From a bacterium (GTDB lineage Bacteria > Bacillota > Clostridia > Christensenellales > CAG-138): 35,330 nt of DNA. Position 1 is the first letter of the stretch, and each line of letters opens with the position of its first letter. Both the position numbers and the translations under genes were made by a program. The notes beneath the pieces are model-generated. The model was given only the letters and a program-made list of their open reading frames with translations. It searched no databases and was not told where the DNA came from. The DNA is taken from positions 1-35,330 of the forward strand of contig CAVDFM010000003.1 in the NCBI GenBank assembly GCA_963608365.1. The letters are read 5' to 3'. Positions 2,891 to 26,379 of the stretch are shown here, in pieces.

Positions 2891-3352
2891 TGAGAGTTTG
2901 TGGACTGCACCAAAAGGCTCCCCGGACGGGGAGCTGGCAATACGCCGTAAGGCGGATTGACTGAGGGGTTGTGATAAGCAAAGAGCTGCGAGCTAATTTA
3001 TAACCCCTCCGGCTTTCGCTTACGCGAAACCCACCTCCCCTTTCAGGGCAGGCTAACTCCTTCCGTCAATTCGCTATCGCTCATTGCCACCTCCCTCAAA
3101 GAGGGAGGCTTAACGCAGGAGTTTATGAGGTACGCCAAAAGGCGCCACCGCGTGCGGGGGAGCTGCTGAGCGTAAGCGAAGCTGAGGGGGAACATCTCAC
3201 GGCACTTGGCATCTTTGAGCCGTTCCCCTTTCGACTGCTCATTTCATTCGCAGCCACTTTCCCCGTAAACGGGGACAGCTTTTGGTTAGTACTATAACAA
3301 GCCTCCCTGTCGAGGGAGGTGGATGCGAGTGCAACGAGCAGCCGGAGGGAGT
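2891..3352. repeat. Mosaic hairpin-repeat cluster R1 (BIME/REP-like organisation).
   Basis: Contains core A copies at 2910-2971 and 3135-3191 and core B copies at 3002-3056, ~3063-3113 and 3298-3351 (inverted). Near-identical modules recur at 9.7-10.2, 14.1-14.6 and 30.9 kb. Confidence 0.85.
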
Positions 3353-3353: not shown

Positions 3354-3383
3354 AAAAAAGACAACCCCTCGGCTGTCTTTTTT
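3354..3383. terminator. Bidirectional intrinsic terminator (serves jag on the minus strand and selD/R1 read-through on the plus strand).
   Basis: aaaaaagaca (3354-3363) pairs with tgtctttttt (3374-3383) around a 10-nt loop. There are A/T tracts on both sides, and it lies 14 nt beyond the jag stop. Confidence 0.7.
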
Positions 3384-3396
3384 CTTTCTTTATTCT

Positions 3397-4392
3397 TTAC
3401 TCTTCCCTGCCCTTGGGCGCTATCACCACGCGGCGGTTGGGTTCTTCGCCCTCGCTGTATGTGGTGACGTAGGGGTTATTTTGCAGCGTTGCATGCAGCA
3501 CGCGGCGCTCGTAGGGGTTCATCGGCTCCAGCGTCCTTGCGCGGCCGGTGCTCCTCACCTGGGACGCTACCTTGCGGGCAAGGCGGGCAAGCGTTTCTTC
3601 GCGCCTGTCGCGGTAGCCTTCGGTGTCCACGGTTATGCGGGTGAAGCCATGCTCCTTGCGGCTGCGGTTAACGTGCAGGCTGGTCAGGTACTGTATCGCG
3701 TCCAGCGTTTCGCCCCTGTGGCCTATCAGCACGCCCATGCCGGAGGAATCTATCCTCAGCCTTACGCCGTCTTCCTCGCTTACGTTGGCAAGCACCTGCG
3801 CGTCTATGTTCATAAGGCGGAGCATTTCCCTGAGGAACTGCGCGGCTTCGTTGTTCTCCGCGGCCTCAAGCGTGTATTCGATCTTGGGCTTTGCGTTCTG
3901 CTCTTCGCGTTCGCGGCGGTTGCTGCGCTCGCGGCGGTTATTACGCTCCCTGCGCGGCGGCCTTACTTCGCTCACTTCTTCAACTATCTCTTCGCGCACT
4001 TCGCCGTTTTCGCTTATTTCTTCGGCTACGGTAACGGTTTCTTCCTTCACCTCTGCCGCTTCCTCGCTGCGCTGGGGCTTATCCTCGCGGCGGGGGCGTT
4101 CGTCGCGGCGGTTACCGCGGTCGCGCCTAGGCCTGTCGTCGCGGCGTGGCCTGTCCTCACGGCGGCGGTTGGCGCGCCGTTCGGCTTCGTTCATATAGTC
4201 GGGTATGACTATCTTTTCAGGCTCGCGCTCGGTCAGCTTTACTATGGCGGGCTTCGCGCCTATGCCAAGTATGCCCTTGGTTTCGTGCTGAACTATGTCT
4301 ATCTCAACTTCGTCTATCGAAACTTCCAGCTCTTTAAGGCCGTTGAAAATTGCTTCGTCTATTGTTTTGCCTGATGCTTCGATTGTCCTCAT
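3397..4392 (-). CDS. khpB: RNA-binding protein KhpB/Jag/EloR (Jag_N, KH and R3H domains) with a long Arg/Asp/Glu-rich linker.
   Basis: 331 aa. N-terminal Jag_N-like sequence MRTIEASGKTIDEAI..; C-terminal KH/R3H-like sequence (..GHRGETLDAIQYL.., ..PMNPYERRVLH..). The start overlaps the yidC stop (ATGA), giving the classical yidC-jag pairing. Confidence 0.88.
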   Translation of the reverse strand: MRTIEASGKTIDEAIFNGLKELEVSIDEVEIDIVQHETKGILGIGAKPAIVKLTEREPEKIVIPDYMNEAERRANRRREDRPRRDDRPRRDRGNRRDERPRREDKPQRSEEAAEVKEETVTVAEEISENGEVREEIVEEVSEVRPPRRERNNRRERSNRREREEQNAKPKIEYTLEAAENNEAAQFLREMLRLMNIDAQVLANVSEEDGVRLRIDSSGMGVLIGHRGETLDAIQYLTSLHVNRSRKEHGFTRITVDTEGYRDRREETLARLARKVASQVRSTGRARTLEPMNPYERRVLHATLQNNPYVTTYSEGEEPNRRVVIAPKGREE

Positions 4393-9498: not shown

Positions 9499-9515
9499 GC
9501 GGGCTGACAAGAGCG

Positions 9516-9607
9516 GTGAAATCCGTTCTTGCGAACGGGTGAAATATTGCTATCGCAATGTGAAATATGGCTCCGCCATGTGAAATCCGCCTTGCAGCGG
9601 GTGAGCG
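9516..9607 (+). repeat. Tandem array of four GTGAAAT+hairpin units closed by GTGAGCG (copy 2).
   Basis: GTGAAAT at 9516, 9539, 9560 and 9580, and GTGAGCG at 9601. The hairpins are ccgttc-ttgc-gaacgg, attgc-tatc-gcaat, atggc-tcc-gccat and ccgc-cttgca-gcgg. Units 2 and 3 nearly match copy 1. Units 1 and 4 differ in sequence but keep their pairing. Confidence 0.85.
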
Positions 9608-9626: not shown

Positions 9627-9654
9627 GGGGACGGGAAGCCGTCCCCTTATTTTT
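9627..9654 (+). terminator. Intrinsic terminator of dnaN.
   Basis: ggggacgg-gaag-ccgtcccc followed by ttattttt. Confidence 0.75.
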
Positions 9655-10195
9655 GCCCAAAGTTTATAGGAAGCGTTGTAGGGGCCGTCATTGGCAGCCC
9701 GTTGAGATTATGTAAGAGTTTGTAAAGCGCACCAAAAGGCTCCCCGGCCGGGGAGCTGGCAAACCGAAGGTTTGACTGAGGGGTTGAAGTAAAAAAGTGA
9801 AGCTACGGTGCAAACCCTCCGTCTGCTCGCTTCGCTCGCATCCACCTCCCCGTGCGGGGAGGCCTAATGTTAGAGTTTGGACAGCAGCCGTGACTGATGG
9901 AGTATTAGCCTGAATAGTTGAGAAAACCGCTTGACACTTAACTGATATTTGTGGCATATTATCTATAGAAGCATGGCTCTGTTGACCGTCTTGGACGTAC
10001 GTCTCGGGAACATCATTTGATGCCTTATAGGGATATTCGGAGGTGCTTCTTTTTCAACCCCTCCGTCTGCTCGTTGCACTCGCATCCACCTCCCTCGACA
10101 GGGAGGCTTAATATAAAAGTTTGTAATGTATTCCAAAAGGCTCCCTCTTAGAGGGAGCTGGAAATTCGCTGCAAGCGAATTTTCTGAGGGAGTAA
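9655..10195. repeat. Mosaic hairpin-repeat cluster R2, with a ~175-nt unique insert.
   Basis: Core A at 9732-9786 and 10133-10192; core B at 9811-9867 and 10055-10111. The unique segment at 9868-10054 replaces the core A half of one unit. Confidence 0.85.
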
Positions 10196-10244: not shown

Positions 10245-11678
10245 TTAATTTTTCATTATCTCAAGGTACTCCCCTGCCGCCTTTTTCCAGGAGAAGTCCT
10301 TTGCCATGCCGCGGCTTACAAGGCCGTTCCACAGGGGCTTGTTCTGATAATCCTGCGCGGCGGTCTCGGCGGCGTAGAGCAGCTCGTGCGCATTGTAATT
10401 GGCAAAGGAGTAGCCGCAGCCGGTGTTGTCGTAGCGGTTGAAGGGAGTAACGGTGTCCTTCAGGCCGCCGGTTTCGCGCACTATGGGAACGGTGCCGTAG
10501 CGCATGGCTATCATCTGCGTCAGGCCGCAGGGCTCAAACAGGCTCGGCACAAGGAACATGTCCGCGCCGGCGTATATGCGGCGGGCAAGCGCTTCGTTGT
10601 ATTCTATGCGGGCGGCAAGTTTGCTTGGGTACATCTTCTGAGCGTATCTGAAAAGGTTTTCGTAGCGGCTTTCCCCCGTCCCCAACACAACGAGCTGAAT
10701 GGGGATATTTATCATTTCCTTCAGTACGCGCTCAACAAGGTCAAGCCCCTTCTGCCCCGTAAGGCGGGAAACTATCGTCGCAACGGGAATAGTTGGGTTA
10801 ACGTCAAGGTCAAGCTCGTTCTGAAGCGCGGCCTTGCATTCGGCCTTGCCGCTCATATTTTCCGGGCAATAATTGCGGCGCAGCGCTTCATCCGTAAACG
10901 GATCGTATGAAACGGTGTCTATGCCGTTAAGTATGCCAACAACGTCCCCCGCGCGCTCCGCAAGCACGCCCTCGAGCGATTCGCCGTAGAACTTGGTCAT
11001 TATCTCCTTTGCGTATGTGGGAGAAACGGTGGTCACCTTGTCCGCGTATACTATGCCGCCTTTAAGATAGTTCACGTTGCCGTAGAACTCCAGCTTGTGC
11101 ATATCGAACGCCGCCTCACCGAGGGAGAGCAGCTCATCGCAGAAGCCGCGGTCGAACACTCCCTGAAACCGCAGGTTGTGTATCGTAAGTATTGTTTTTA
11201 TGCGGGAGAAATACGGCATCTTGGCATAGTGTAGCTTCATAAGCGCGGCGGCCATTGCCGTTTGCCAGTCGTTCAGGTGCAGCGCATCGGGCATGAAGCC
11301 TATGTGCGGCAGCATCTCTATTATGGCCTTGGAGAAGAAGCCGAAGCGCTCCGCCTCGTCGCAATTGAATACGCCGTAAATATAATCCCGCCCGAAATAG
11401 TATTCGTTATCTATAAAGTAATATGTTACGCCGCGCTGAACAAGGCTTTCCACCCCGCAGTATTGATTGCGCCAGCCAAGCTTGATGTTAAAATCGCACT
11501 CGTGGCGCATATGCATGCCGTAGCGCGCCTTTACTTTGGCATAAAGCGGCAGCACAACCCTTATGTCCGCGCCCATTTCTTTAAGCTGAACGGGCAGCGC
11601 GGCGGCAACGTCCGCAAGGCCGCCTGTCTTTACGAAGGGAGCGCATTCGCTGGCGGCAAAAAGGATCTTTTTGCTCAT
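10245..11678 (-). CDS. glgA: Glycogen synthase (ADP-glucose type, GT5).
   Basis: 477 aa, with the N-terminal signature MSKKILFAASECAPFVKTGGLADV. Confidence 0.93.
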   Translation of the reverse strand: MSKKILFAASECAPFVKTGGLADVAAALPVQLKEMGADIRVVLPLYAKVKARYGMHMRHECDFNIKLGWRNQYCGVESLVQRGVTYYFIDNEYYFGRDYIYGVFNCDEAERFGFFSKAIIEMLPHIGFMPDALHLNDWQTAMAAALMKLHYAKMPYFSRIKTILTIHNLRFQGVFDRGFCDELLSLGEAAFDMHKLEFYGNVNYLKGGIVYADKVTTVSPTYAKEIMTKFYGESLEGVLAERAGDVVGILNGIDTVSYDPFTDEALRRNYCPENMSGKAECKAALQNELDLDVNPTIPVATIVSRLTGQKGLDLVERVLKEMINIPIQLVVLGTGESRYENLFRYAQKMYPSKLAARIEYNEALARRIYAGADMFLVPSLFEPCGLTQMIAMRYGTVPIVRETGGLKDTVTPFNRYDNTGCGYSFANYNAHELLYAAETAAQDYQNKPLWNGLVSRGMAKDFSWKKAAGEYLEIMKN

Positions 11679-12799
11679 ACCAGCGCCCCTTTTCTTATCG
11701 TCACGGGGAAGCCTTCGTATCCGGCAAGGTGCCTGCCCGGACGCACCTGCACGCCCTTATCGAGTATAACGTAATCCAGCGCACAGTTTTCGCGTATTTC
11801 GCTGGCCTGCATCACTATGCAGTTTTTAAGCTTCGTCCCCTGCCCAACGTGTACCCCGCGGAACAGTATGCAGTTTTCTACGCTGCCTTCAACTATGCAG
11901 CCGTCCGCAAGCAGGCTGTTTTTCACCTTTGCGTCTGCGCCGTAGCGGGTGGGGGCTTCGTCCTTCACCTTTGTGTAAATGGGATGCTCCGCATTGAAAA
12001 GGTCCGCGCGCACGGCCTCGTTGAAAAGGTCCATGTTGTGCTTAAAATAACTCGGCACGGAATCAAGCCGCGCAACGTAGCCATCGTAACGGTAGCCGTT
12101 GAGTTTAAGCTTTGCAACGTTCCTCACCAGCACGTCCCGCACAAAGTCCGTATAGGCATGGCTTGCCGCGTCCTCGATAAGGTATTCCAGCATGCTCTTT
12201 TCCATTATGTATGCATCGCAGCAGCGGTATGGCGTTTTGGGCCTGTACGGGTCTATTTCAAGATCGACTATTCTGTTCCCTTCGCCAAGGGTAAGCCTTA
12301 GATCATCGTAACGCACGGCGTCGCCCCAGTCCTTTTCTTCGCTGTACATAAGGGTAACGTCCGCGCCGCTTTCAATGTGGCTCTTGAGCATTGCGTCATA
12401 GGTGCAGTTATATATCGTGTGGCTGCCGGTAAGTATAACGTAGCGCTGGGCGCTGCGGCGCACGTAGCCCATTACGGAGCGTATTGCGTCGATAGTGCCG
12501 CGGTAAAGGCCGGTATTGTCCCGCGTTAAAAACGGCGGCAGTATGAAAAGCCCGTCGCGCTTCCTGTGAAGATCCCATTCCTTGCCGCTGCCAAGGTGAT
12601 CCATAAGCGAATGGTAGTTCCTTTGCGCAATAACGCCAACGTTGGTAACGCCCGTGTTCACAAGGTTGCTCAGAATAAAGTCTATGCAGCGGTATCTTCC
12701 GCCAAAGGGCACCGCGGCGATGGAGCGGCTGTATGTAATGTCCCTGAGCTGGTTGTTTGATTCGCCCGTGTAAATAAGTCCGAATGCTTTTTCGTTCAT
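11675..12799 (-). CDS. glgD: Glucose-1-phosphate adenylyltransferase, GlgD (regulatory) subunit.
   Basis: A GlgC paralogue (..AAVPFGGRYRCIDFILSNLVNTG..) that lacks the GGxGxRL loop. I prefer the ATG at 12799 (GGAGG 6 nt upstream). It follows glgC and overlaps the glgA start by 4 nt. Confidence 0.88.
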   Translation of the reverse strand: MNEKAFGLIYTGESNNQLRDITYSRSIAAVPFGGRYRCIDFILSNLVNTGVTNVGVIAQRNYHSLMDHLGSGKEWDLHRKRDGLFILPPFLTRDNTGLYRGTIDAIRSVMGYVRRSAQRYVILTGSHTIYNCTYDAMLKSHIESGADVTLMYSEEKDWGDAVRYDDLRLTLGEGNRIVDLEIDPYRPKTPYRCCDAYIMEKSMLEYLIEDAASHAYTDFVRDVLVRNVAKLKLNGYRYDGYVARLDSVPSYFKHNMDLFNEAVRADLFNAEHPIYTKVKDEAPTRYGADAKVKNSLLADGCIVEGSVENCILFRGVHVGQGTKLKNCIVMQASEIRENCALDYVILDKGVQVRPGRHLAGYEGFPVTIRKGALV

Positions 12800-14039: not shown

Positions 14040-14632
14040 TGATCTATTTTTGCCAAGGGGCCAGGGGAGATTTCGATTTCTCCCCTTAGGCCCCCTGGCG
14101 ACCCCCGTAACCCCTTTGAAACGATCGCTCCGCGAGGGGTACGGCACTGTACGCCGTGTTTGCACTGCGCCCAAAAGGCTCCCCGCACGGGGAGCTGGCA
14201 ATACGCCGTAAGGCGGATTGACTGAGGGGTTGACGTAAACAAGAGCAGCCCCGATGCAACCCCTCCGGCTTTCGCTTGCGCGAAACCCACCTCCCCGTTC
14301 GGGGAGGCTTAACGTAAGAGTTTATACTGTACCAAAAGGCGCCACCGCTTGCGGGGGAGCTGTCGAGCCGTAGGCGAGACTGAGGGGGAATAGTAAAATA
14401 GCTTGGCAACTCCGAGCCGTTCCCCTTTCGGCCACTCACTCCGTTCGTGTCCACTTTCCCCGCAAGCGGGGACAGCTTTTGGTTGGAATTATCGCCAGCC
14501 TGCCCTGAAAGGGGATGTGGCGAACGAAGTGAGCCGGAGGGGTTATAAACCGGCTCGCTGCTCTCCGTTTATCTCAACCCCTCAGTCGGCTTACGCCGAC
14601 AGCTCCCCGTTCGGGGAGCCTTTTTGATAGTC
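14040..14632. repeat. Mosaic hairpin-repeat cluster R3, filling the glgB-glgC spacer.
   Basis: Core A at 14171-14232, 14332-14389 and 14575-14626 (inverted). Core B at 14257-14312 and 14496-14544 (inverted). There is also a nested hairpin at 14054-14098. Confidence 0.85.
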
Positions 14633-16622: not shown

Positions 16623-16874
16623 ATGTGCAGTAATGATCTTTGGGGCTTGGGCGTTGGCCTTAGCGCCCGCATAGAAAACCATGATGATTCGCCCGAAAAC
16701 GCGGCAATGCTGAGGCGGCTTATGGATATAGGCTTTACCGAAGGGGCGGAGATTGAATGCGTGCTTGCGGCCCCGGGCGGCGGAATAAAGGCATACCTTG
16801 TGCGCGGCAGCGTCATAGCCCTGCGCGAAGGGGATGCGCGGCTTATAAAAACAGGTGAAGCGTATGCAAAATGA
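16623..16874 (+). CDS. feoA: Ferrous iron transport protein A (FeoA domain).
   Basis: 83 aa from the ATG at 16623 (GGAGG at 16613-16617). The sequence ..LMDIGFTEGAEIECV....G.IKAYLVRGSVIALREGDARLI.. matches the FeoA SH3-like fold pattern, and the gene overlaps the feoB start. Confidence 0.85.
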   Translation: MCSNDLWGLGVGLSARIENHDDSPENAAMLRRLMDIGFTEGAEIECVLAAPGGGIKAYLVRGSVIALREGDARLIKTGEAYAK

Positions 16875-17907
16875 GCCTGTTATAGCCCTTTGCGGCAACC
16901 CCAACGTTGGCAAAAGCACGCTGTTCAACGCCCTTACCGGCATGAAGCAGCACACGGGCAACTGGAGCGGCAAAACGGTGGGCCTGGCGCGGGGCGTATG
17001 CACGCGCGGCGGGAAGCGATACGGAATAGTTGACCTGCCGGGCACATATTCGCTCCTTGCCCATTCAAAGGAGGAGGAGATAGCAAGCGGCTTCATAGCA
17101 TCGGGCCATGCGGATGCGGCGGTGGTGGTGTGCGACGCAACGTGCCTTGTGCGCTCGCTTACGCTTGCCATGCAGGTTTCGCGCCTGCACGCGCGCACGG
17201 TATTATGCATAAACCTTATGGACGAGGCCGAACGCCGCGGCATAAGCATAGACACAGCAAAGCTTGAAGCATTAAGCGGCCTGCCCTGCGCCGCGGTGTC
17301 CGCGCGGAGCGAAAGGGGCATAGATGAGCTGTTTACTAAAATCAACGCCGCGCTTGAAGCGGAGCCTTCTCCCCCGCCCGCATTTGCGTGCGATTGCCCT
17401 AACGCGGCCTTCTGCCTTTCGGAAAGCATATGCGGCAAGTGCGTTGCCGTATCGAAAACCGCGGACGAGCGCCGCATGAAGATAGACAGAATACTTACCG
17501 GCAGATACACGGGCATACCGATAATGCTTATTCTGCTTGCGCTGGTGTTCTACATAACGCTTGAAGGGGCAAACTATCCTTCCGCGTGGCTGAGCAAGCT
17601 GCTGCTTTCGCTTGAGCCGCCGCTAAACTCCGCATTGCTCTCGCTCGGCCTGCCGCAGGGCGCGGCGCTCGCGCTCAGCGCGGGGGCGTACAGGGTGCTT
17701 GCGTGGGTGGTGAGCGTTATGCTGCCGCCGATGGCGATCTTCTTCCCGCTGTTCACCTTCCTTGAAGAGCTTGGCTATCTTCCCCGCGCGGCATTCAATA
17801 TGGACCATTACTTCAGCCGCTCAGGCTCCTGCGGCAAGCAGGCCCTGACCATGTGCATGGGCGTAAACCGAATGCGGGCTTGCGTATTTTATCCAGCTAA
17901 TGTATGA
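16864..17907 (+). pseudogene. feoB: feoB 5' fragment (G domain plus first membrane segments), disrupted by island insertion.
   Basis: G-domain motifs GNPNVGKST, DLPG and NLMD. The FeoB-like sequence stops at ...GKQALTMCMG (17862) and is followed by 14 unrelated codons and a stop. Confidence 0.9.
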
Positions 17908-18953
17908 TGTACAAGAAAGTGTGCAAGATAATGCGCAAGATAAACAATGGAGGAAGCACTTTGGACAGATATGACCCGCCGTATACCATCACGGACAGCA
18001 TGCTTGAGCGCGCGGCATCAATATCCGAAAAGCTCGGCAGAATAAGCACGGCGCACGGGCTTGAAAATAAACCGCATCTGCGCAGAAACAACCGAATAAA
18101 ATCCATCCATTCCTCGTTGCGCATAGAGGCCAATTCACTATCCCTGGGGCAGGTGCGCGACGTTATAGGCGGGCGGATGGTAATAGGCGCGCAAAGGGAA
18201 ATACAGGAAGTTAAAAACGCATACGAAGCATATGAAAGGCTTCCTCAAATAGACCCATACAGCATTGACGATTTGAAAACGCTGCACGGCATAATGACAA
18301 AATGCGTTGTGGAGGAATCCGGCTTTTTCCGCACGGGGGAAGAAGGCGTGTTCAACGGCGACAAATGCGTTTTCGTGGCCCCGCCGGCAAAGCTTGTGAA
18401 CGAGCTTATGGAAAACCTGTTTGAATGGATGAACCGCGCAAAGGAAAGCGTGCATCCGCTGATACTGTCTGCTGTGTTTCATTATGAATTTGTGTTTATC
18501 CATCCGTTTGCGGACGGCAACGGCAGGATGGCGCGGCTTTGGCACACGGCGCTGCTTTCAAAATGGAAGCCCATATTTGAATACATTCCGCTTGAGAGCC
18601 AAACGGAGAAGTTTCAGGACGAATATTATAAGGCCATTGCCGCCTGCCACGGCGAAGGCCGCGCGGATACATTTATAGAGTTCATGCTGAGGATGATAGA
18701 CAACGTGCTGGATGAAATTGCGGAGCAGATAGCGCGCACGGACGATCAGCTTCCGCTTTGCGTGAAAAAGCTTATGGACTGCATGGAGTACGATACTTCG
18801 TATACTGCGGCGGAGCTGATGCAAAGGCTTGAGCTCAAATCAAGGAACGCCCTGCGCAATAACTATATTTCCCCCGCCATGCGGCTCGGGTTGGTGGCAA
18901 TGACAATTCCCGATAAGCCCAACAGCCGCAATCAGCGCTACATAAAAAGATAA
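17904..18953 (+). CDS. Fic/DOC family protein (canonical Fic motif, C-terminal wHTH-like region).
   Basis: HPFADGNGRMARLWH matches HxFx(D/E)GNGRxxR. An upstream SSLRIEAN segment resembles the (S/T)xxxE(G/N) inhibitory helix. The start codon is uncertain (17904 or 17931). Confidence 0.85.
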   Translation: MMYKKVCKIMRKINNGGSTLDRYDPPYTITDSMLERAASISEKLGRISTAHGLENKPHLRRNNRIKSIHSSLRIEANSLSLGQVRDVIGGRMVIGAQREIQEVKNAYEAYERLPQIDPYSIDDLKTLHGIMTKCVVEESGFFRTGEEGVFNGDKCVFVAPPAKLVNELMENLFEWMNRAKESVHPLILSAVFHYEFVFIHPFADGNGRMARLWHTALLSKWKPIFEYIPLESQTEKFQDEYYKAIAACHGEGRADTFIEFMLRMIDNVLDEIAEQIARTDDQLPLCVKKLMDCMEYDTSYTAAELMQRLELKSRNALRNNYISPAMRLGLVAMTIPDKPNSRNQRYIKR

Positions 18954-18960
18954 AGTAAAA

Positions 18961-18982
18961 AGGCACGGTATTAGCCGTGCCT
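18961..18982. terminator. Hairpin terminator between the convergent Fic and P-loop genes.
   Basis: aggcacgg-tattag-ccgtgcct, preceded by AAAA (a T-tract on the minus strand). Confidence 0.6.
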
Positions 18983-19001
18983 TGGTTATCTGAATGAAAT
19001 T

Positions 19002-19976
19002 TTAGCCGTTATAGTGGCTGAACATATTGTCCGTTGCGGTGCGGATGGCGCGGGTGACGTCGGTAACCTTGTCCGCGGCCCAGGTTTCGGGCTCGCCGCG
19101 CAGGAAGGAGGTCTTGTCCACCCTGTTGTCGAATACGCCTATGGGCACATGGTATGTTTTGCCGTGCGCGTTTACGGTAACGGTGTTTTCAACATCGCTG
19201 GTTTTGATAAGGTACTCCATATCGTCGCAGCCGTAGTCGCCCAGCATTACCGCCATGGGCACGCCGTGGTGCAGATTGGAGCCGGGGTCGTTGGGATCCG
19301 CCCTGTCCGCATTCTTGCGGCGAGATTCTTCCGGCGTTACCCAAATATAGAGTATAACGGCCTGTTCAAGTATTTCCGGGCAGAACATGGGCAAAGAATA
19401 CTGATAGCCGAACGTCCCCGTGAGCGGCATGGCTGCGCCGTCCGGTCCGCCGCGCGCGCATTCGATTATTATGGTCTTGTTTTCAAAGCTTTCGGGGTAA
19501 CCGGCATGCTTTTCATTAAGCATTGCGCGGGCCTCTTTTTCAAGCCTTTCGGCAATTGTGTTCCGCGTGTTTTCATCCAGCACGCCAAGCCTGTTGGGTA
19601 TGCCCGCGCCCGCGGCAGCCCTGTCGAACCGGTCGAAAAGCAGCTTCGCCGCGGAGTCAGGCTTCGAAATATTGCGGTTCATCAGGTCGTGATAATCCTC
19701 GTTGAGCAAATTGCACAGCGTGCCCCAGTCGCGCCCGTCCAGGAAAGGCGCTTCGCCGGGATAGAACACGCGCGGCTTATTAAGCTTTGCAAGCTCCTCG
19801 TCAATGCGGCGCATCATATGCACATAGGGAAAATCGTCAAGCTGAAGGTTTTCGCCTATATGGAACTCGTTTTGCAGCCTTTCCGGCTCCACATGCGCCA
19901 TAAAATTCCTCACTTCGGACTTGCCGGACGCCGGCAGCGCCTGAAGCAGAACCACCTTAAATACGTTGTTTTTCAT
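19002..19976 (-). CDS. Uncharacterised P-loop (kinase-like) protein.
   Basis: 324 aa. Walker-A-like VVLLQALPASGKSE at the N-terminus, then ..IIIECARGGPDG.. and an Arg-rich ..TPEESRRKNADR.. segment reminiscent of a kinase lid. I do not recognise the family. It starts 20 nt downstream of the 5'-nucleotidase gene. Confidence 0.55.
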   Translation of the reverse strand: MKNNVFKVVLLQALPASGKSEVRNFMAHVEPERLQNEFHIGENLQLDDFPYVHMMRRIDEELAKLNKPRVFYPGEAPFLDGRDWGTLCNLLNEDYHDLMNRNISKPDSAAKLLFDRFDRAAAGAGIPNRLGVLDENTRNTIAERLEKEARAMLNEKHAGYPESFENKTIIIECARGGPDGAAMPLTGTFGYQYSLPMFCPEILEQAVILYIWVTPEESRRKNADRADPNDPGSNLHHGVPMAVMLGDYGCDDMEYLIKTSDVENTVTVNAHGKTYHVPIGVFDNRVDKTSFLRGEPETWAADKVTDVTRAIRTATDNMFSHYNG

Positions 19977-19996
19977 GCTGTCTCCTTCTTTCTGTA

Positions 19997-21505
19997 TCAG
20001 TAAATAAGTTTAAGCCATTTATGCTTGTCCACGGTTATATTGCGGTGCTTATCAACGTATGCGATTATCAGCTCCGCAATTTCCGTAGGCAGCTCGCGCA
20101 TGGTTTCGCATTGGCGGTAAACGTCGTAGCCGCCCGCGCCCGACGCGCGGTAGTTATTCATGCAAAGAGTAAGGCGCTTATCGCCGCTTAATTCCTCGCC
20201 TTTGTATTTTATCGAAACCACCCTGTCCCCCGCGCTTCGGCGTATATCGAACACGGCTTCTATGCCCGAAAAATAATCGTAATTGAAATGCTGCTCTATC
20301 GGCACAAGGAAGCTTTCGCTCACCATCAGCTTGCCGTCGGCGCCCATCGTGAAGTATTCCGCGCTCCGCTCCAATGCGCGTTTAAGCTGCTCCCGCGTGA
20401 CGCAAAGGGTTTTGAGCGTGTTGGGGTAAATATATGTGGATACGATGTCGCGTATGGTAACGTCCCTGTTCAGCCCCTTCACCGTGTTGCCAAGGCTTGT
20501 TGCGGAAATGTCCGCGCCTGTCGCCTCAAGCTGCACCTGATTGAAAAAGTTGGCTATCAGGCTGCCGTTTGCGGCCATGTCTATATGGTCGCGCGGCAGA
20601 AGCTCCGCGTCAAGATGCCCAACGGGCGTATCGAACCACACGGCGGCCTGCTCCTCATACGGGGCGAGCAGCTCATGCGCGGCTGCGCTTTCATTATCCC
20701 CCGCGGGGCAAATGCGGGACACGGCGCTTACGCCGTTTTCAACCGATATGTCAAGCTCAATGTACTCCTTCGCCTTGTCGGCAGGCTGGCAGGTGAACGT
20801 GCCGCACACGCGCTTATTCTCCGCCGCCATGTGCTGATGCCCCGCAAGCAGAATATCGTAATCAAGCTCAGAGCATATCCTGTACCCTTGGTTTTCATCC
20901 GTTGCGGAAAGGGGTGCGCCGGTTGCCAAATCGCGCTCGTACCCGCCGTGGTATATGCATATGTTTATGTCAGTATGCTGCGCCTTTAGCTCGCTTAAAG
21001 CCTCTTTGGCGGCGGTGAAGGCGTCCGTAACGGTTATGCCCTGCATGTTCTCGGGCTTTTCAAATATGTTCACATAATGCGTTGTAACGCCCGCAAGCCC
21101 CACGCGAAGGCCGTTTTGCAGCGTTACTACGGCGGTGCTTTCAACGCCCATTATGCCGCGCACGTTCGCGCAAAGGCATTTTGCGTTGAGCGCGGCAAGG
21201 TATTCCTCTATCGCCGCTTTGCCGTAATTGAAATCGTGATTGCCAAGGGTCACAAAGTCGTACCCGCCTATGTTCATAAGCGAAGCTATTGCTTTGCCGC
21301 CGTGCTCCGTTTGGCTGTAAAGATAATATGTGAACGGGCTGCCCTGCAGGATGTCCCCGCCGTCTATTATAAGCGTATCGCCGTCCTTTTTGAAATTGGC
21401 TATGCAGTTTGAAAGCCCCGCGGCTATGCGGCTTCCCGTTGCATAATCGGTTGGGGAAAACGCGCCGTGAACATCGCTTGTGTAGTATATCTTCAGCTTT
21501 TTCAT
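19997..21505 (-). CDS. Bifunctional metallophosphoesterase/5'-nucleotidase family protein (UshA/CpdB-like), apparently cytoplasmic.
   Basis: Motifs DVHG, GGDILQG, GNHDFN and AGHQH, plus a C-terminal 5'-nucleotidase-type domain. I prefer the ATG at 21505 (MKKLKIYYTSDVHG) over the track start at 21652. No signal peptide is visible. Confidence 0.85.
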   Translation of the reverse strand: MKKLKIYYTSDVHGAFSPTDYATGSRIAAGLSNCIANFKKDGDTLIIDGGDILQGSPFTYYLYSQTEHGGKAIASLMNIGGYDFVTLGNHDFNYGKAAIEEYLAALNAKCLCANVRGIMGVESTAVVTLQNGLRVGLAGVTTHYVNIFEKPENMQGITVTDAFTAAKEALSELKAQHTDINICIYHGGYERDLATGAPLSATDENQGYRICSELDYDILLAGHQHMAAENKRVCGTFTCQPADKAKEYIELDISVENGVSAVSRICPAGDNESAAAHELLAPYEEQAAVWFDTPVGHLDAELLPRDHIDMAANGSLIANFFNQVQLEATGADISATSLGNTVKGLNRDVTIRDIVSTYIYPNTLKTLCVTREQLKRALERSAEYFTMGADGKLMVSESFLVPIEQHFNYDYFSGIEAVFDIRRSAGDRVVSIKYKGEELSGDKRLTLCMNNYRASGAGGYDVYRQCETMRELPTEIAELIIAYVDKHRNITVDKHKWLKLIY

Positions 21506-21573
21506 GGTTATGCTATGCATAATGCCCCGTGCTTTTGGTGCGGCGGGGCATTGCGGAATCAAAATTTTGTGTT

Positions 21574-22437
21574 TTATGCGCCGTGCGCCAGCTTGCGGCG
21601 TATCCTTGTGGATACAAGCTCTATTATAAGCACCAGCACCATCAGCCCCCATACGAACGCGCCTACCATTGCCCAGCGGCGGCTGTTAAGGCACTGCACA
21701 AGCGATGCGCCTATGCCGCCCGCGCCCACTATACCAAGGGTGGTGGCGTCCTTCAGGTTTATGTCGAAGCGGTAAATGGTTGTTGAAATAAAGCTTGCGG
21801 TAAGCTGGGGTATAACGCCGTAGCGGATCTTTTGGAAAGGCGTGCAGCCCATCGCATCCAGGCTTTCGAGTATATGCGTATCAAGATCCTCTATTGCCGT
21901 TATGTACATTTTTGATATCATGCCGATAGAGCATATGGACTGCGTTATAACGCCGCAGGCTGCGCCCGGGCCGGTAACGCGTATCCACATCAGCGCCCAA
22001 ACAATGCTGGGTATGGTGCGTATCATAAGTATAAGCACCCTTACCGCGTAAGCCACGGGCTTAGGCATAATGTTGAACGAAGCGAGGAACGCAAACGGTA
22101 TCGCAAGCACCGCGCCTATAAGCGTGCCGAGCACCGCAATGGCGATGGTCTGCAGCAGAAGATACGGAACGTCCGTATCCGATGTGCCGAAAAGCAGGGC
22201 TTTATCCGGGCTGAATACGCCGTGCAGCACGCCCTTTGCAACCTCCGTACCCGTTACGGTAAGGCCGGTGAACTTTATGTCCGATGCGGACCAGCCCACC
22301 ATTACGACTATCAGCAGCACTATTGCAAGATACAGCACCCACTTGCGCGGGCGGTTGGCGTACATTTCCGCAACGGTCAGCTTTTTGTCCAGCGTCTGTT
22401 CAATTTCGTCTATTATGTTCTTCTTTTTCTTTTCCAT
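21574..22437 (-). CDS. phnE: PhnE-type ABC transporter permease (second copy).
   Basis: Polytopic, with the EAA-like loop ..IEDLDTHILESLDAMGCTPFQKIRYGVIPQ.. I prefer the start at 22437 (GGAGG upstream), 14 nt after the preceding permease gene. Confidence 0.85.
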   Translation of the reverse strand: MEKKKKNIIDEIEQTLDKKLTVAEMYANRPRKWVLYLAIVLLIVVMVGWSASDIKFTGLTVTGTEVAKGVLHGVFSPDKALLFGTSDTDVPYLLLQTIAIAVLGTLIGAVLAIPFAFLASFNIMPKPVAYAVRVLILMIRTIPSIVWALMWIRVTGPGAACGVITQSICSIGMISKMYITAIEDLDTHILESLDAMGCTPFQKIRYGVIPQLTASFISTTIYRFDINLKDATTLGIVGAGGIGASLVQCLNSRRWAMVGAFVWGLMVLVLIIELVSTRIRRKLAHGA

Positions 22438-22451
22438 GACGCCCCTCCTCA

Positions 22452-23306
22452 TCAGCTAAGCTTCTTGCGCAGATATTCGCTGAAGAAGTCTATCGCCACG
22501 ACCACGACAAACAGCGAAAGCAGCACCATGCCAAGGCTGTTGTAATCGCGCCAGCCTATGCGTTCGTTTATGGTTATGCCAAGGCCGCCTGCGCCAACGT
22601 AGCCAAGTATGGCCGAAGCGCGCACGTTCATTTCAAAGCAATAAAGGCTGTGGCTCAAATAAACGGGCAATATCTGCGGCACGCACGCGGACCAGAACGC
22701 CTGGAATTTGTTGGCGCCAAGCGCCTCCATGGCCTCAAACGGCCCCATGTCGATTGTCTCTATGCTTTCAAAAAGCATTTTGGCAACTATGCCGAACGTG
22801 AATATGGCAATAGCTACCGTGCCCGAGAATGTGCCAAGGGAGAATATAAGCGCGCACACAAGGGCTATTATAAGCGTGGGCAGCGTGCGGATAAGGGCCA
22901 GTATAAAGCGGCATATGCTCACAATAACAACGCTGTGGTTAATGTTGCTGGACGAAAGTATGGCGATGGGCAGCGCCAGCGCGCAGCCTATTACCGTGCC
23001 CAGTATGGACATCTTAATGGTGTCAAACAGCGGGGATATGACTTTCGGGAAAAAGCTCCAGTCCGGCTGGAATATCTTTTTAAGCAAATCCAGCATTTTG
23101 CTGAACTTGTTTATTACCGTGCCTATGTCAAAGCCCGTCATTTTAAGCGAAAGATATATCGCCGCCGCAAGCAGTATTATTATAAGCGGGGCGCGGCTCC
23201 TGCGGCGCAGCACGCTATGGCCGTTGGCAAGTGTTATGCGCTGCGGCTTAAATATTTTGTCGTATAGGGTTTCCTTTATTATTACGGGGCTGTTTTCGTT
23301 TTCCAT
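22452..23306 (-). CDS. phnE: PhnE-type ABC transporter permease (first copy).
   Basis: 284-aa polytopic protein, with ..IETIDMGPFEAMEALGANKFQAFWSACVPQILP.. Confidence 0.85.
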   Translation of the reverse strand: MENENSPVIIKETLYDKIFKPQRITLANGHSVLRRRSRAPLIIILLAAAIYLSLKMTGFDIGTVINKFSKMLDLLKKIFQPDWSFFPKVISPLFDTIKMSILGTVIGCALALPIAILSSSNINHSVVIVSICRFILALIRTLPTLIIALVCALIFSLGTFSGTVAIAIFTFGIVAKMLFESIETIDMGPFEAMEALGANKFQAFWSACVPQILPVYLSHSLYCFEMNVRASAILGYVGAGGLGITINERIGWRDYNSLGMVLLSLFVVVVAIDFFSEYLRKKLS

Positions 23307-23310
23307 ATCA

Positions 23311-24105
23311 TCAGCCCTCGGTTTTTATCTGGTGCAGCTCGCCCTCGCCTTCGCCCATTGTGGGGACCTTGGTGCCGTTGTACACCTCGTCTATCTGCTC
23401 CTGCGTTATGGTGCTTGCGGGCCCGTCGAAAACTATTTCGCCCGCGCGTATGCCTATTACCCTGTCGCAGTATTTGAGCGCCAGGTCAACATGGTGGATA
23501 TTGAGCAGTATGGATATTTTGTATTCCTTGTTTATGCGCACAAAGTCCTGCATGACCTGCTTTGCGGTTATCGGGTCAAGCGAGGCCACGGGTTCGTCCG
23601 CAAGAATTATCTTCGGGTTCTGGTTAAGCGTCCGCGCGAGCGCAACGCGCTGCTGCTGGCCGCCGCTCAATTGGTCGCAGCGGGTATAGGCCTTATCCAA
23701 AATGCCTACCTTGTCCAGACTTTCAAGCGCGCGCATCTTCTGCTCCTTGGAGAATATGCCGAACAAAACCTTGAAGAAGGGCATATCGGGCACGTCCGCC
23801 GTGAGTACGTTCTTTATGGCGGTGCTGCGGGAGACCAGATTGAAGCTCTGGAATATCATGCCCACCTTGCGGCGGTATTTGCGCAATGCCTTGCCGCGGA
23901 GCGTGTTTACGTCCACGCCGTCCACCGTGAGCTGACCCTTTGTAACGTCGTGCATACGGTTGATGCAGCGCAGTATTGTGGACTTGCCCGCGCCGGAAAG
24001 GCCGATTATGGCCACGAACTCGCCCTGCTCTATTTTCAGGTTTATGTCCTTTAGCGCCGTGAAGCCGTTTGGATAAGTCTTATACACATTTTTGAATTCT
24101 ATCAT
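23311..24105 (-). CDS. phnC: PhnC-type ABC transporter ATP-binding protein.
   Basis: Walker A GLSGAGKST, signature LSGGQQQRVALAR, Walker B ILADEPVASLD. The length and the ..LNIHHVDLA.. segment are typical of PhnC. Confidence 0.9.
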   Translation of the reverse strand: MIEFKNVYKTYPNGFTALKDINLKIEQGEFVAIIGLSGAGKSTILRCINRMHDVTKGQLTVDGVDVNTLRGKALRKYRRKVGMIFQSFNLVSRSTAIKNVLTADVPDMPFFKVLFGIFSKEQKMRALESLDKVGILDKAYTRCDQLSGGQQQRVALARTLNQNPKIILADEPVASLDPITAKQVMQDFVRINKEYKISILLNIHHVDLALKYCDRVIGIRAGEIVFDGPASTITQEQIDEVYNGTKVPTMGEGEGELHQIKTEG

Positions 24106-24137
24106 GCTGCGAACTCTTTCTTATATTATTATGGGAA

Positions 24138-24165
24138 AAAGCGCCCTGTATAGGCAGGGCGCTTT
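24138..24165 (-). terminator. Intra-operon hairpin with a T-tract after the binding-protein gene (attenuator or mRNA stabiliser).
   Basis: On the reverse strand, aaagcgccctg-cctata-cagggcgcttt is followed by TTCCC (with the paired TTT this reads TTTTTCCC). It begins 14 nt after the phnD stop. Confidence 0.6.
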
Positions 24166-24178
24166 GCGGTTCGAATTA

Positions 24179-25324
24179 TTATTCGGAAACGGCCTTAAGA
24201 GCAGCGCGGGCTCCGTCATAATCGGAATCCACAGCCTTGGCATAACCGGTGTGGCTGTACACATCGAATATGGCCTTGCCCTCTTCGGTATTGATTATGT
24301 TGATGAAGCAATCCTGAAGAGCCGCTACTATTTCGGGGGTGTAATACTGGCTGGCCTTGGAGATGGCAACGGTGTCGTTGTAGATACCCTCGGTCACGCC
24401 GATAACGTTGAGCTCGTTCCAGATGGAATCGGAGCGGCCCATGCCCTGCTTACCGGTTTCGTCCTTCTGGTCTACGGGCAGCGTCCAGCTGGCTTCGTAG
24501 TCGTTACGGCCGTCGGCATAGCAAACGATGATGTCTACCTGCTCGGCAGCGGCGTAGGAGAAGGCGGTGCCGTAGCCGGAGTCAAGAGGAATGACGTTGG
24601 TAAGATCGGAGATCTTCTTGCCGTCATAGTTGGCCATCAGCCACATGGAAGGATAGATGTAACCGGCGGAAGAGGAGGTCTTCTGCACCGCCCAGCGGGC
24701 GCCGTCAAGATCTTCCCAGGTGAGGGCTTCGCCGTTGTTGACCTTCTCGGCCAGCATCTTGCCGTACTCGGTGGGAGCGGCATAGATCAGGGAACGATAG
24801 TAGGTTACCTGGGGGCCGTTCTTCTGGGTGGCGTTAGCTTCGCCGTTCCAGTCCGCGGGGTTGGTGCTGTCGTTGGACAGGCCGTTGCGGGTGGCGGTCA
24901 GTATAACGTCGGTATCATCGGAATAGAGGGCATAGGTGCCGCCGGGCAGCCAGCCGAGGTCGATGGAACCGGCAGACATGGCCTCACCGGTGGCGTCGTA
25001 GCTGGTGCCTACGGTGATGTCAACTTCGTCTATGTCGTAGCCAAGGTTGGCCATTTCGGCCTTGACCAGCTCGGGCAGGTTCGCGGTACCGGCGATTATA
25101 ACGTCGGCATCCTTGGAAGGAACGAACTCAAGGGTCAGCTTGTCGAAATGCTGATTGGCGGGTTCGGCGGTGGGCTCCGCAGCGGCGGGGTCAGCGCTGG
25201 GTTCGGTCTGGGCGGGTTCAGTGTTGGCAGGCTCGTCGGTATTGGCGGGCTCGGCGTTCTGAGTGCAGGCGCAGACGGAGATCATCATAACAAGTGCTAT
25301 CAGCAGTGCTACGATCTTCTTCAT
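24179..25324 (-). CDS. phnD: PhnD-family substrate-binding lipoprotein.
   Basis: MKKIVALLIALVMMISVCAC lipobox, a Pro/Glu/Ala/Thr-rich tether, then a PhnD-like periplasmic-binding fold. I prefer the ATG at 25324 (GGAGG 8 nt upstream). Confidence 0.8.
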   Translation of the reverse strand: MKKIVALLIALVMMISVCACTQNAEPANTDEPANTEPAQTEPSADPAAAEPTAEPANQHFDKLTLEFVPSKDADVIIAGTANLPELVKAEMANLGYDIDEVDITVGTSYDATGEAMSAGSIDLGWLPGGTYALYSDDTDVILTATRNGLSNDSTNPADWNGEANATQKNGPQVTYYRSLIYAAPTEYGKMLAEKVNNGEALTWEDLDGARWAVQKTSSSAGYIYPSMWLMANYDGKKISDLTNVIPLDSGYGTAFSYAAAEQVDIIVCYADGRNDYEASWTLPVDQKDETGKQGMGRSDSIWNELNVIGVTEGIYNDTVAISKASQYYTPEIVAALQDCFINIINTEEGKAIFDVYSHTGYAKAVDSDYDGARAALKAVSE

Positions 25325-25407
25325 TTTGTAGATTTCCTCCATACTTTTTTATTCACGGCTAAACGCCTGTGAATTTCAAATTTTTTTGGCCTTATTTGCC
25401 GCAACAA

Positions 25408-25436: not shown

Positions 25437-25470
25437 TGCCGATAGATATATTGTTTTCAGATTAGACAAA

Positions 25471-26367: not shown

Positions 26368-26379
26368 ACTTAGCTGCTC

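Follow-up and report, generated by a model that had tools for sequence, protein, structure and literature searches.

A REP/BIME-like family of extragenic palindromes in Clostridia and Negativicutes, physically joined to the Gut-1 RNA motif

We show here that the intergenic repeats in a 35,330-nt stretch of DNA around the replication origin of a gut Christensenellaceae bacterium (hereafter the window) form a real, structure-conserving family. Further anaerobic Firmicutes have it too, and it is physically linked to the Gut-1 RNA motif. They are probably a REP/BIME-type palindromic DNA family, nearest to the CGTC-tagged REP dimers and served by a putative mobiliser. The kind of repeat is already known; new here is a REP/BIME-like family, with arms outside Rfam, in Clostridia and Negativicutes. 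A BIME/REP-like nature had been proposed in a first-pass annotation of the window, and it is borne out by short palindromes that lie outside genes and alternate in orientation, by spacers of two kinds, by mosaic arrays, and by module gain and loss among strains.

Arms, units and arrays in the window

The basic arm is 55-60 nt long. It has a GC hairpin that does not vary, a second, "cassette" hairpin that does, and unpaired anchors that are conserved, in the order anchor, CTCCCC-N4-GGGGAG hairpin, (C/G)TGG, cassette hairpin and (GA)CTGAGGGGTT. The 5' anchor is CCAAAAGG, or TTAAGC in the B form. About 17 arms are distributed over four spacers, and the family takes up ~1.3 kb (roughly 3.7%) of the window. 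Its motifs are strongly enriched: CTGAGGGG occurs 7 times against 0.66 expected, CCAAAAGGCNCC with at most one mismatch gives 10 matches against 1.25 expected (8 of them A copies), and CCACCTCCC-N6-GGGAGGC with at most three mismatches gives 12 against 0.2. A separate repeat search of the window also recovers the family. All 14 copies listed in the first-pass annotation, eight of core A and six of core B, were found by nhmmer at the positions given there, together with three arms that it had overlooked, among them the B arm at 3059-3112. The two A copies described there as variants are correctly placed, but are actually the left arms of full palindromic units. Repeat family D7 and a motif search identify core B as a diverged inverted copy of A, a relation that had previously escaped notice.

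Two arms, head-to-head over a 24-30-nt spacer, make an A-loop-B unit of ~150 nt, closed by pairing of GAGGGGTT with AACCCCTC, and a linker of ~21 nt chains such units tail-to-tail into arrays. The palindromic nature of the unit is evident from the covariance model, which matches both strands of each unit, and the unit ends are imperfect inverted repeats (CCAAAAGGCTCCCC versus TTAAGCCTCCCC). A-loop-B was chosen as the unit because the A anchor fits the downstream and not the upstream B: the downstream B is a perfect match to the 3' anchor of A in 66 of 92 cases and the upstream B in 14 of 68, with 28% for random pairs. A B-linker-A unit, closed by AACCCCTC...GAGGGGTT round four hairpins, was ruled out on this ground. 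The features of the window are as follows.

2797-2872, + strand: Gut-1 motif (RF01706), leader of cluster 1; 72.7 bits against a gathering score of 50
2893-2909, + strand: linker/leader AGAGTTTGT-N8 ahead of the A arm; repeat family D5
2910-3056, + strand: A-loop-B unit U1, with A arm 2910-2971, spacer 2972-3001 and B arm 3002-3056 (parts by nhmmer); covariance model 141.6 bits
3059-3112, + strand: extra B arm of the CTCCCTC/GAGGGAG subtype; nhmmer 38.0 bits
3135-3285, + strand: variant palindromic unit V1; covariance model 57 bits; repeat families D4 and D20
3298-3351, - strand: inverted B arm, end of cluster 1; nhmmer 46.4 bits; repeat family I3
9514-9591, + strand: Gut-1 motif (RF01706), heading cluster 2; 77.1 bits (gathering score 50)
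9732-9867, + strand: A-loop-B unit U2, with A arm 9732-9786 and B arm 9811-9867; covariance model 133.1 bits
10055-10192, + strand: B arm 10055-10111, 21-nt linker, A arm 10133-10192; nhmmer and covariance model
14171-14312, + strand: A-loop-B unit U3, with A arm 14171-14232 and B arm 14257-14312; covariance model 131.1 bits
14332-14482, + strand: variant palindromic unit V2, paralogue of V1; covariance model 76.7 bits; repeat families D4, D20 and I21
14496-14626, - strand: inverted A-loop-B unit U4, with A arm 14575-14626 and B arm 14496-14544; covariance model 122.8 bits on the - strand
30860-30944, - strand: solitary A arm (30883-30944) with partial spacer and no B arm; nhmmer

The predicted fold of U1 has z = -3.7. 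V1 is closed by CCAAAAG/CTTTTGG, has an inner helix GGGGGAAC/GTTCCCC and folds at -70.6 kcal/mol (z = -4.3); V2 shares its closure. The stretch at 10055-10192 is a tail-to-tail junction lacking its outer partners, and its A arm is of the CTCCCTC/GAGGGAG subtype. The solitary A arm lies upstream of a patatin-like gene (29904-30782, - strand), and the 85 nt from which it comes (30860-30944) are 93% identical to 14171-14255 (repeat family I1). At the other gene borders, the inverted B arm at 3298-3351 abuts the post-jag hairpin and T-run (about 3354-3385), a terminator-like hairpin at 9627-9646 precedes U2, and 6 nt separate the end of U4 from the glgB stop codon.

Read as its reverse complement, arm A presents a 7-bp GC hairpin with CTTTTGG behind it and is flagged by a terminator scan, which would suit a reading of the GC hairpins as plain intrinsic terminators or insulators that were locally duplicated. 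The terminator-like reading put forward in the first pass is weak, since only 4 T follow the hairpin and scan counts show no clear excess over shuffles (2 versus 0.8, 3 versus 1.2 and 1 versus 0.9). T-runs here have only 4-5 T, B arms and cassette hairpins have none, the genes beside clusters 1 and 2 own hairpin-plus-T-run sites outside the repeats, and units occur upstream of genes too. We therefore regard an origin as simple duplicated terminators as extremely improbable.

Conserved pairing and shuffled hairpin alleles

In the covariance-model test, 92.4% of cells were paired versus 78.0% after shuffling, both sides had changed in 30 of 34 pairs, and the covariation score was 0.333, as compared with 0.110 in shuffled and at most 0.059 in slid controls. 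Most cassette hairpins fold better than their shuffles and, when read on the strand of their own arm, show GNA/GNRA loops and tandem mismatches of the G.A type. Their stems are mostly of 4-8 pairs, with loops of 3 nt in 103/300 and 4 nt in 129/300; 14 of 300 minimum-free-energy folds begin the stem with two A/T bases, and variable-length insertions fall in loops. Cassette folds and covariance-model test thus agree with the earlier observation that the hairpins vary in sequence yet keep their pairing. Selection on structure, which had been deduced from this pattern, is upheld by pairing and covariation above the shuffled level, but what varies is a set of discrete hairpin alleles that recombination has shuffled, not the outcome of stepwise compensatory changes. 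Across 50 units, 19 hp2 alleles and 26 hp3 alleles form 41 combinations, and within a unit the alleles of the two cassette hairpins are unrelated and combine freely. Local and inter-arm (duplex) folding energies of the cassettes are similar, amounting to a tie.

Within a genome, identity between units peaks at 90% in the Phil1 MAG (median 81%) and at 85% in the window (median 74%), and this comparison revealed no identical copies within either genome. Since no two copies in a genome exceed 90% identity, recent duplication does not account for the pattern, as had been argued before. For the same reason there is no sign of recent transposition, which counts against the REP/BIME reading.

If the repeats are indeed of the REP/BIME type, the arms may persist through folding as single-stranded hairpins, each on its own strand, by analogy with REP head-to-head dimers, which are recognised on ssDNA. 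They might diversify when copies recombine or undergo gene conversion inside the conserved anchors, and might have been seeded by a putative trans-acting enzyme. In 3' UTRs, the transcribed hairpins could behave in a REP-like manner, shielding the 3' ends of mRNAs or damping read-through and translation close to termination.

Related genomes, strain dynamics and the search for a mobiliser

The comparison set comprised 1.31 Mb of flanks and related loci from Christensenellaceae, other Clostridia MAGs and Pectinatus, a member of the Negativicutes, and the repeats occur in all three groups of hosts. The 419 arms found there keep the same grammar. The 94 A>B> pairs have gaps of at least 24 nt (median 30) and the 71 B>A> pairs a median gap of 21 nt, in agreement with the spacing proposed earlier; other arrangements are rare, and clusters reach 7 arms. 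In some lineages (L099) both arms of a unit are of the same type. The unpaired anchors are kept across Firmicutes classes in hosts of 36% to 66% GC, including the AT-rich Pectinatus genome. This conservation exceeds the expectation for a neutral parasite and counts against the REP/BIME reading. Location is extragenic, with 25 convergent, 34 tandem and 12 divergent spacers versus a background of 103, 260 and 111, so that convergent spacers are over-represented among the repeat sites. Searches for a phage or plasmid origin yielded no evidence of one: plasmid collections gave no match, phage collections gave three short matches, all in unannotated faecal "Bacteriophage sp." contigs, and an arm lies at the end of one IMG/VR contig.

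Strain loci were reached through a DnaN homologue 98% identical to that of the window. Among strains with identical DnaN, the dnaN-glgA spacer ranges over 589-958 bp and the glgC-glgB spacer over 586-847 bp, with differing module maps, and module maps likewise differ in the comparison with the Phil1 MAG. Closely related strains thus gain and lose modules at orthologous sites. The comparison of orthologous intergenic regions advocated in the first-pass annotation accordingly uncovered presence/absence differences of whole modules. The strain alignments contained no clean insertion junction, filled/empty site or target-site duplication, and this too counts against the REP/BIME reading.

A phmmer search of all ORFs of at least 70 aa in the 1.31 Mb flanks, with E. 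coli RayT and the IS200 and IS608 TnpA proteins as queries, detected no Y1/RAYT/IS200 ORF; the sole match had E = 0.037 and no Pfam domain. Clustering of neighbour proteins (1.3 Mb) revealed no enriched family, no recurrent mobile gene and no transposase. Repeats that lack coding capacity and have no mobile gene beside them in these flanks agree with the REP/BIME reading. A cargo transposase between inverted arms was considered for L003 and L007, where the translations look like ordinary chromosomal genes and none is transposase-like. Integron attC sites, CRISPR, TIGR-like arrays, invertons, parS, and bridge or omega RNAs were set aside from the sequence, because there are no cassette ORFs or spacers and no adjacent recombinase or nuclease gene, the spacers are homologous between units, and the inverted repeats lie 24-30 nt apart.

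These data also bear on whether the units might be MITEs derived from a DDE-type insertion sequence with the same terminal inverted repeats. The imperfect inverted repeats at the unit ends, the unit size of ~150 nt and the many matches at contig ends, as high-copy repeats would give, are compatible with such an origin. However, no transposase of any kind is enriched beside the units and no parent element was found in the 1.3 Mb, the strain alignments lack target-site duplications and clean filled/empty sites, identical copies are absent within genomes, and the strict alternating grammar with conserved linkers is unlike independent insertions. A MITE origin is therefore very unlikely.

The Gut-1 leader, RNA-level readings and known repeat systems

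Gut-1 (RF01706) was described as a candidate stand-alone ncRNA, seen solely in gut metagenomes (Weinberg et al. 2010, PMC2864571). Its two copies in the window, both above the gathering score, lie directly 5' of clusters 1 and 2, a proximity missed in the first pass, and here the motif is a leader module of repeat arrays after stop codons as opposed to the stand-alone ncRNA of that description. The copy at 2797-2872 consists of four GTGAAAT-plus-hairpin modules and begins 7 nt past the stop of an AIR-synthase-like gene (1747-2790), while that at 9514-9591 begins 16 nt past the dnaN stop codon (9498). In most cases at other loci, as in both window copies, Gut-1 starts 7-17 nt past the stop of a long same-strand ORF, and in 20 of 23 cases at other loci a same-strand A arm follows the motif within 30-151 nt. 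About one in eight clusters is headed by Gut-1, and the number of GTGAAAT-hairpin modules varies, from four in the window to one in strain L025. In a search of 4227 Rfam models, arms A and B of cluster 1 had no match better than E = 2. The novelty claimed for the repeats thus stands insofar as no Rfam family covers cores A and B, though the adjoining Gut-1 module is already named. Across the whole window, Rfam returned nothing at E <= 0.05 save Gut-1 twice and one sub-threshold AsdA match, which is unrelated to the repeats.

The position of Gut-1 invites a reading of the units as modular cis-acting structured RNA elements of 3' UTRs, in which the Gut-1 leader and the A/B units are selected as RNA and might offer a platform of several hairpins to an RNA-binding protein, stabilise 3' ends or damp translation close to the stop codon. 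The start just past the stop of a same-strand ORF and the same-strand A arm that follows point this way, as do strong covariation, anchors kept from 36% to 66% GC and loop insertions, as in RNA families. The 5' neighbour gene is co-oriented in 62 versus 31 cases, and G.T mismatches exceed A.C (84 versus 33) on the A-to-B strand. Co-orientation, G.T excess and post-stop Gut-1 all suit an RNA-level role and count against the REP/BIME reading. On the other hand, since arms alternate in strand, the GNA/GNRA loops and G.A mismatches of half of each unit fall on the opposite strand. Both unit orientations occur within 13 clusters, 12 clusters lie in divergent spacers, and convergent terminator-like hairpins, one on each side, enclose most of cluster 2. 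With genes defined more loosely the orientation bias is weak (129 versus 100), copy number and module content differ between near-identical strains, and the arms have no Rfam match. Selection of the units as RNA is thus possible but rather unlikely. It is tempting to speculate further that, in anaerobic Firmicutes, the Gut-1 leader and A/B units constitute a hitherto unrecognised structural system of nucleic acids, widely conserved and served by a putative dedicated protein partner, possibly a new ssDNA-hairpin mobilisation machinery unrelated to RAYT, or a modular 3'-UTR RNA platform directly past stop codons. Such a system, which we consider unlikely, would account for anchors that stay constant from 36% to 66% GC while the hairpins are free to vary.

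The family, for which we favour the REP/BIME reading, resembles several known systems (for background see Di Nocera, De Gregorio and Rocco 2013, PMC3733652). Enterobacterial BIMEs, composed of RAYT-associated REP Y and Z arms with S and L linkers, share with the window family alternating-orientation extragenic palindromes, two alternating spacers, mosaic arrays, strain-variable module number, a bias towards convergent spacers and the 3' ends of genes, and probable evolution by gene conversion. They differ in having one hairpin per REP, whereas the window arms have two (invariant GC and cassette), and their hosts are Proteobacteria as opposed to Clostridia and Negativicutes. The likeness to REPs seen in the first pass holds for array organisation, but the GTAG tag by which RAYT-mobilised REPs are defined is absent here and no RAYT was found in the 1.31 Mb flanks, two points that count against the REP/BIME reading.

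The CGTC-tagged REPs, a superfamily that includes Neisseria dRS3 and Rickettsia RPE-4/6, carry a CGTC tag (also TGTC or CCTC) and a CCA tail, prefer head-to-head arrangement and have no dedicated transposase; the 2013 survey found CGTC repeats in five phyla, Firmicutes not among them (PMC3733652). In our set, B-arm heads are CGTC in 55 and CGGC in 32 of 104, and A-arm heads are AGTC (reverse complement of GACT) in 147 of 217; the tail behind the cassette hairpin reads CCAC in 96 of 104 B arms and CCAG (reverse complement of CTGG) in 171 of 217 A arms. An unpaired C(G/A)(T/G)C motif at the cassette head recalls the CGTC tag in part of the arms. Both groups have a CCA tail after the hairpin, a predominance of head-to-head dimers (here 94 versus 71 tail-to-tail), a conserved spacer with complementary ends, and no dedicated transposase (here none in the 1.3 Mb flanks). 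In contrast, CGTC-tagged REPs have stems of 8-9 bp that open with two A/T positions, and loops of 4-5 nt, while the cassettes described here have 4-8 pairs, rarely an A/T start, and loops of mostly 3-4 nt. Moreover, window A arms carry AGTC and not CGTC, and each tail bears an extra conserved GC hairpin.

REPINs, the REP doublets of Bertels and Rainey, likewise persist and replicate as two inverted arms round a short spacer. However, REPIN arms pair along their length into one hairpin, whereas the cassette hairpins are independent, locally folding alleles; there is also no master sequence or identical copy here, and a single-copy RAYT was not found in the 1.31 Mb flanks. Our literature search turned up no named repeat in Christensenellaceae and no REPIN/RAYT in Firmicutes.

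Among Firmicute intergenic repeats, the BOX elements of Streptococcus pneumoniae (boxA-boxB(n)-boxC) are similar by description, being modular and hairpin-forming with a variable module number. Their modules are directional (A, B, C), in contrast to the alternating inverted arms of the window family. To our knowledge, BOX elements have no mobiliser either.

REP/BIME-type repeats are well documented in Proteobacteria, and the family described here recurs across several gut Clostridia lineages and Pectinatus. A distant Firmicute family therefore provides a second system for asking how palindromes spread without an obvious transposase. The many contig-end matches imply that the repeats fragment Christensenellaceae metagenome assemblies, and module differences among near-identical strains are possible strain markers. 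The orphan Gut-1 "ncRNA" can be re-read as a module that belongs to a repeat array and sits just past stop codons.

Arms and units of the repeat family

The window spans the region around the replication origin in the genome of a member of the Christensenellaceae (jag, yidC, rnpA, dnaA, and dnaN), in which the glycogen genes glgA, glgD, glgC, and glgB come after dnaN, and it is ~94% identical to MSGS01000032.1 from the MAG "Christensenellaceae bacterium Phil1." About 1.3 kb of the 35.3 kb is made up of repeats, and the family that they form is real, abundant, structure conserving, and unnamed. All A and B arms listed in the first-pass annotation were found where it had placed them, together with a B arm at 3059-3112 absent from its list, and a de novo repeat search recovered the family without prior knowledge. 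In the window, the anchors occurred above chance (CTGAGGGG, 7 versus 0.66 expected; CCAAAAGGCNCC, 10 versus 1.25), as did the B hairpin pattern (12 versus 0.2). Two copies regarded as variants of the A arm are present, but each is in fact the left arm of an entire palindromic unit:

3135-3285: palindromic unit, closed by CCAAAAG/CTTTTGG
14332-14482: palindromic unit (V2), closed by CCAAAAG/CTTTTGG

The A arm reads CCAAAAGG-CTCCCC-N4-GGGGAG-CTGG-hairpin-CTGAGGGGTT, and the reverse complement of the B arm reads TTAAGC-CTCCCC-N4-GGGGAG-GTGG-hairpin-C(G)GAGGGGTT. The B arm is thus a diverged inverted copy of the A arm, and the family has a single kind of arm, composed of an invariant GC hairpin (hp1 or hp4) and a variable "cassette" hairpin (hp2 or hp3). 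Arms were counted in 150 related loci, drawn from one genome-collection, one metagenome, and one viral scan plus ten strains found via a DnaN homolog 98% identical to that of the window. Among the 419 arms in this 1.31 Mb, orientation alternates; A was followed by B at 94 junctions (A>B>; gap of at least 24 nt, median 30) and B by A at 71 (B>A>; median 21 nt), and other arrangements were rare. In 66 of 92 cases, the 3' anchor of A was identical to that of the downstream B when both were read in arm orientation, and was hence complementary to it; the upstream B matched in 14 of 68 cases and random pairs in 28%. This identifies A-loop-B, a head-to-head pair of arms spanning ~150 nt, as the unit, and the linker chaining such units carries AGAGTTTGT.

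Conserved pairing and exchange of hairpins

A covariance model of the A-loop-B unit, comprising five local helices, yielded 392 matches in 834 kb, with both strands of each unit matched (~130-145 versus 45-65 bits), as expected for a palindromic unit. The proposal that the hairpins change in sequence yet stay paired was borne out by the 150 best of these 392 matches: standard pairs occupied 92.4% of cells, compared with 78.0% after shuffling, both partners had changed in 30 of 34 pairs, and the covariation score was 0.333 versus 0.110 shuffled and at most 0.059 with partners slid, all these figures being upper bounds because the alignment is model fitted and its rows are in part related to one another and in some cases reverse strand. 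Even so, each of the four Watson-Crick pair types occurred at hp2/hp3 positions in comparable counts (e.g., GC 40, CG 33, UA 33, and AU 26), and the majority of distinct cassette hairpins fold better than their own shuffles. The helix pairing the A 3' anchor with B also covaries between hosts (GAGGGGTT/AACCCCTC, GAGAGGTG/CACCTCTC, and GATGAGGG/CCCTCATC).

Cassette hairpins form discrete alleles, not a continuum, and combine nearly freely. Nineteen hp2 and 26 hp3 alleles gave 41 combinations in 50 distinct units, and the most frequent hp2 allele had nine different hp3 partners. Such mixing is indicative of recombination or gene conversion in which crossovers fall inside the conserved anchors. 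When each arm is read on its own strand, cassette loops are GNA triloops or GNRA-like tetraloops, and many stems contain tandem G.A mismatches; since the arms alternate, A carries these features on one strand and B on the other. In DNA, d(C-GNA-G) mini-hairpins and sheared G.A pairs are unusually stable, and the loops and mismatches hint that the arms might fold as single-stranded DNA.

The B arm also contains a conserved CCACCTCC (e.g., 3031-3052, 9842-9863, and 14287-14308), which equals the anti-Shine-Dalgarno end of 16S rRNA (CACCUCC). Its hairpin partner, GGGGAGG, is Shine-Dalgarno-like, so that each unit sequesters such a tract. The resemblance may be a coincidence of GC-rich purine/pyrimidine runs.

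Relation to REP elements, distribution, and strain variation

The BIME/REP-like interpretation put forward from the first reading is supported, except for a terminator-like role of the hairpins, for which the case is weak. The family shares its grammar with BIMEs and lacks the GTAG tag of RAYT-mobilized REPs. CGTC-tagged REPs combine a CGTC-type head, a CCA tail, head-to-head dimers, and structured spacers, and have no dedicated transposase (Di Nocera et al. 2013, PMC3733652). The cassette hairpin and its flanks resemble these elements, B-arm heads being CGTC in 55 and CGGC in 32 of 104 cases, with a CCAC tail in 96 of 104. However, their stem length, loop length, and A/T rule are not found here, the A arms have AGTC, and each tail carries an additional conserved GC hairpin. 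The inter-arm pairing and master sequence of REPINs are likewise lacking. Given these partial likenesses, the family is best placed with the REP/BIME kind, though in no named family. No Y1/RAYT/IS200-like ORF was detected in the 1.31 Mb of flanks of the 150 sampled loci; with perhaps hundreds of units per genome, a single RAYT gene may lie outside this sample. No protein family was enriched beside units in the flanks of related loci, and genes between inverted arms included no transposase-like ORF, as judged from translations only.

A scan of 185,579 GTDB species representatives found the exact 24-base core in nine genome records, with 18 stretches in all. These records are the Phil1 MAG, the isolate Pectinatus brassicae, several MAGs of Christensenellaceae or Clostridia (some labeled Faecalibacterium), and a 1.35-kb contig that is probably mis-binned. 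A metagenome scan yielded at least 120 stretches. The GC content of host loci ranges from 36% to 66%, and Pectinatus has AT-rich loops within the same anchors. Two P. brassicae units (locus L019, 5290-5420, and locus L002, 7100-7200) carry nearly identical ~100-nt insertions with their own hairpins in the last B hairpin loop; thus, loops tolerate nested insertions.

The ten strains, which have one same DnaN protein, possess clusters at the same spacers with whole-module differences, the dnaN-glgA spacer measuring 589-958 bp and the glgC-glgB spacer 586-847 bp. An extra B-linker-A block and an insertion within V2 distinguish Phil1 from the window. The Phil1 and strain comparisons revealed no clean insertion accompanied by target duplication. 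Units inside one genome are at most 90% identical, so no recent burst has taken place.

Several other elements were observed. Adjoining cluster 3 in the glgC-glgB spacer, ~105 nt (14046-14150), found neither in Phil1 nor in other strains at that site, hold a long imperfect hairpin, GCCAAGGGGCCAGGGGAGATTTCGATTTCTCCCCTTAGGCCCCCTGGC, a different type of palindromic module. Inside cluster 2, in the dnaN-glgA spacer, a segment at 9931-10050 contains a near-consensus promoter-like site (TTGACA-18-CATATT with TG), and the ~85 nt downstream of that site terminate in a stem and T-run; the segment could be a gene for a small RNA or a remnant of the toxin-antitoxin insert that other strains carry at this position. 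A 36-aa hydrophobic, lysine-tailed ORF, MMTWSEFLAFLMFVIELFKIFLRVLRFVVKLIKKEK (31077-31187, +), with structured flanks (~31000-31240) and no Pfam match, looks like a type I toxin. Its homolog lies in opposite orientation amid repeat units within the dnaN-glgA spacer of other strains (L020, ~11600-11900). feoB appears split into an N-terminal part (FeoB_N and start of Gate, 350 aa, 16855-17907) and a C-terminal part on the same strand (FeoB_C and Gate, 288 aa, 29051-29917). The intervening ~11 kb (17904-29054) has the appearance of an integrated element that interrupts feoB; it encodes Fic, 5'-nucleotidase, a phosphonate-type ABC transporter, SurE, a Bro-N protein, and, at its far end, a large serine recombinase (27462-29054). 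A truncated 333-aa FeoB also occurs in related strains, and the Fic-domain gene (17904-18953) is present in most strains, absent from L026, and largely absent from L005 (Phil1 contig). Tandem 18-nt periodic repeats, TCGCGGCGGTT..., in jag/KhpB (3911-4164, + strand) probably encode a low-complexity linker from Jag_N to the KH domains.

Gut-1 and the level at which the repeats act

The only matches in an Rfam search of the window were two Gut-1 motifs:

2797-2872: Gut-1 (RF01706), starting 7 nt after the stop of the AIR-synthase-like gene; cluster 1 next
9514-9591: Gut-1 (RF01706), starting 16 nt after the dnaN stop; cluster 2 next

Gut-1 was originally described (PMC2864571) as a candidate ncRNA and was known from gut metagenomes alone. 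For 20 of 23 Gut-1 hits in nonredundant loci, a same-strand A arm lay within 30-151 nt 3' of Gut-1, and in at least 13 of 21 cases Gut-1 started 7-17 nt past the stop of a long same-strand ORF. Gut-1 is modular (GTGAAAT plus a variable hairpin), and module number varies between strains, with four in the window versus one in strain locus L025 (11114-11200). In these loci, its behavior is that of a leader module that a repeat array may or may not have. The upstream stop codon is located in or just before a small first hairpin (e.g., GCGCAC-TAAC-GTGCGC, 2781-2796).

A role of the units at the RNA level would fit the placement of Gut-1 directly past stop codons and the reported lowering of upstream-gene expression by REPs within ~15 nt of a stop codon (Liang, Rudd and Deutscher, 2015). 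Such a role would also fit a co-oriented gene upstream of arrays in 62 versus 31 cases, by crude gene calls, and the 84 G.T versus 33 A.C mismatches on the A-to-B strand. However, with a looser definition the orientation bias is weak (129 versus 100), 13 clusters have mixed orientations and 12 lie in divergent spacers, cluster 2 is mostly situated between two convergent terminator-like hairpins, and for half of each unit the characteristic loops and mismatches are on the opposite strand. We therefore favor a repeat family at the DNA level, with possible secondary effects of its transcripts. The main added value of these results lies in linking this family to Gut-1 and in showing that REP-type architecture extends to Clostridia and Negativicutes.
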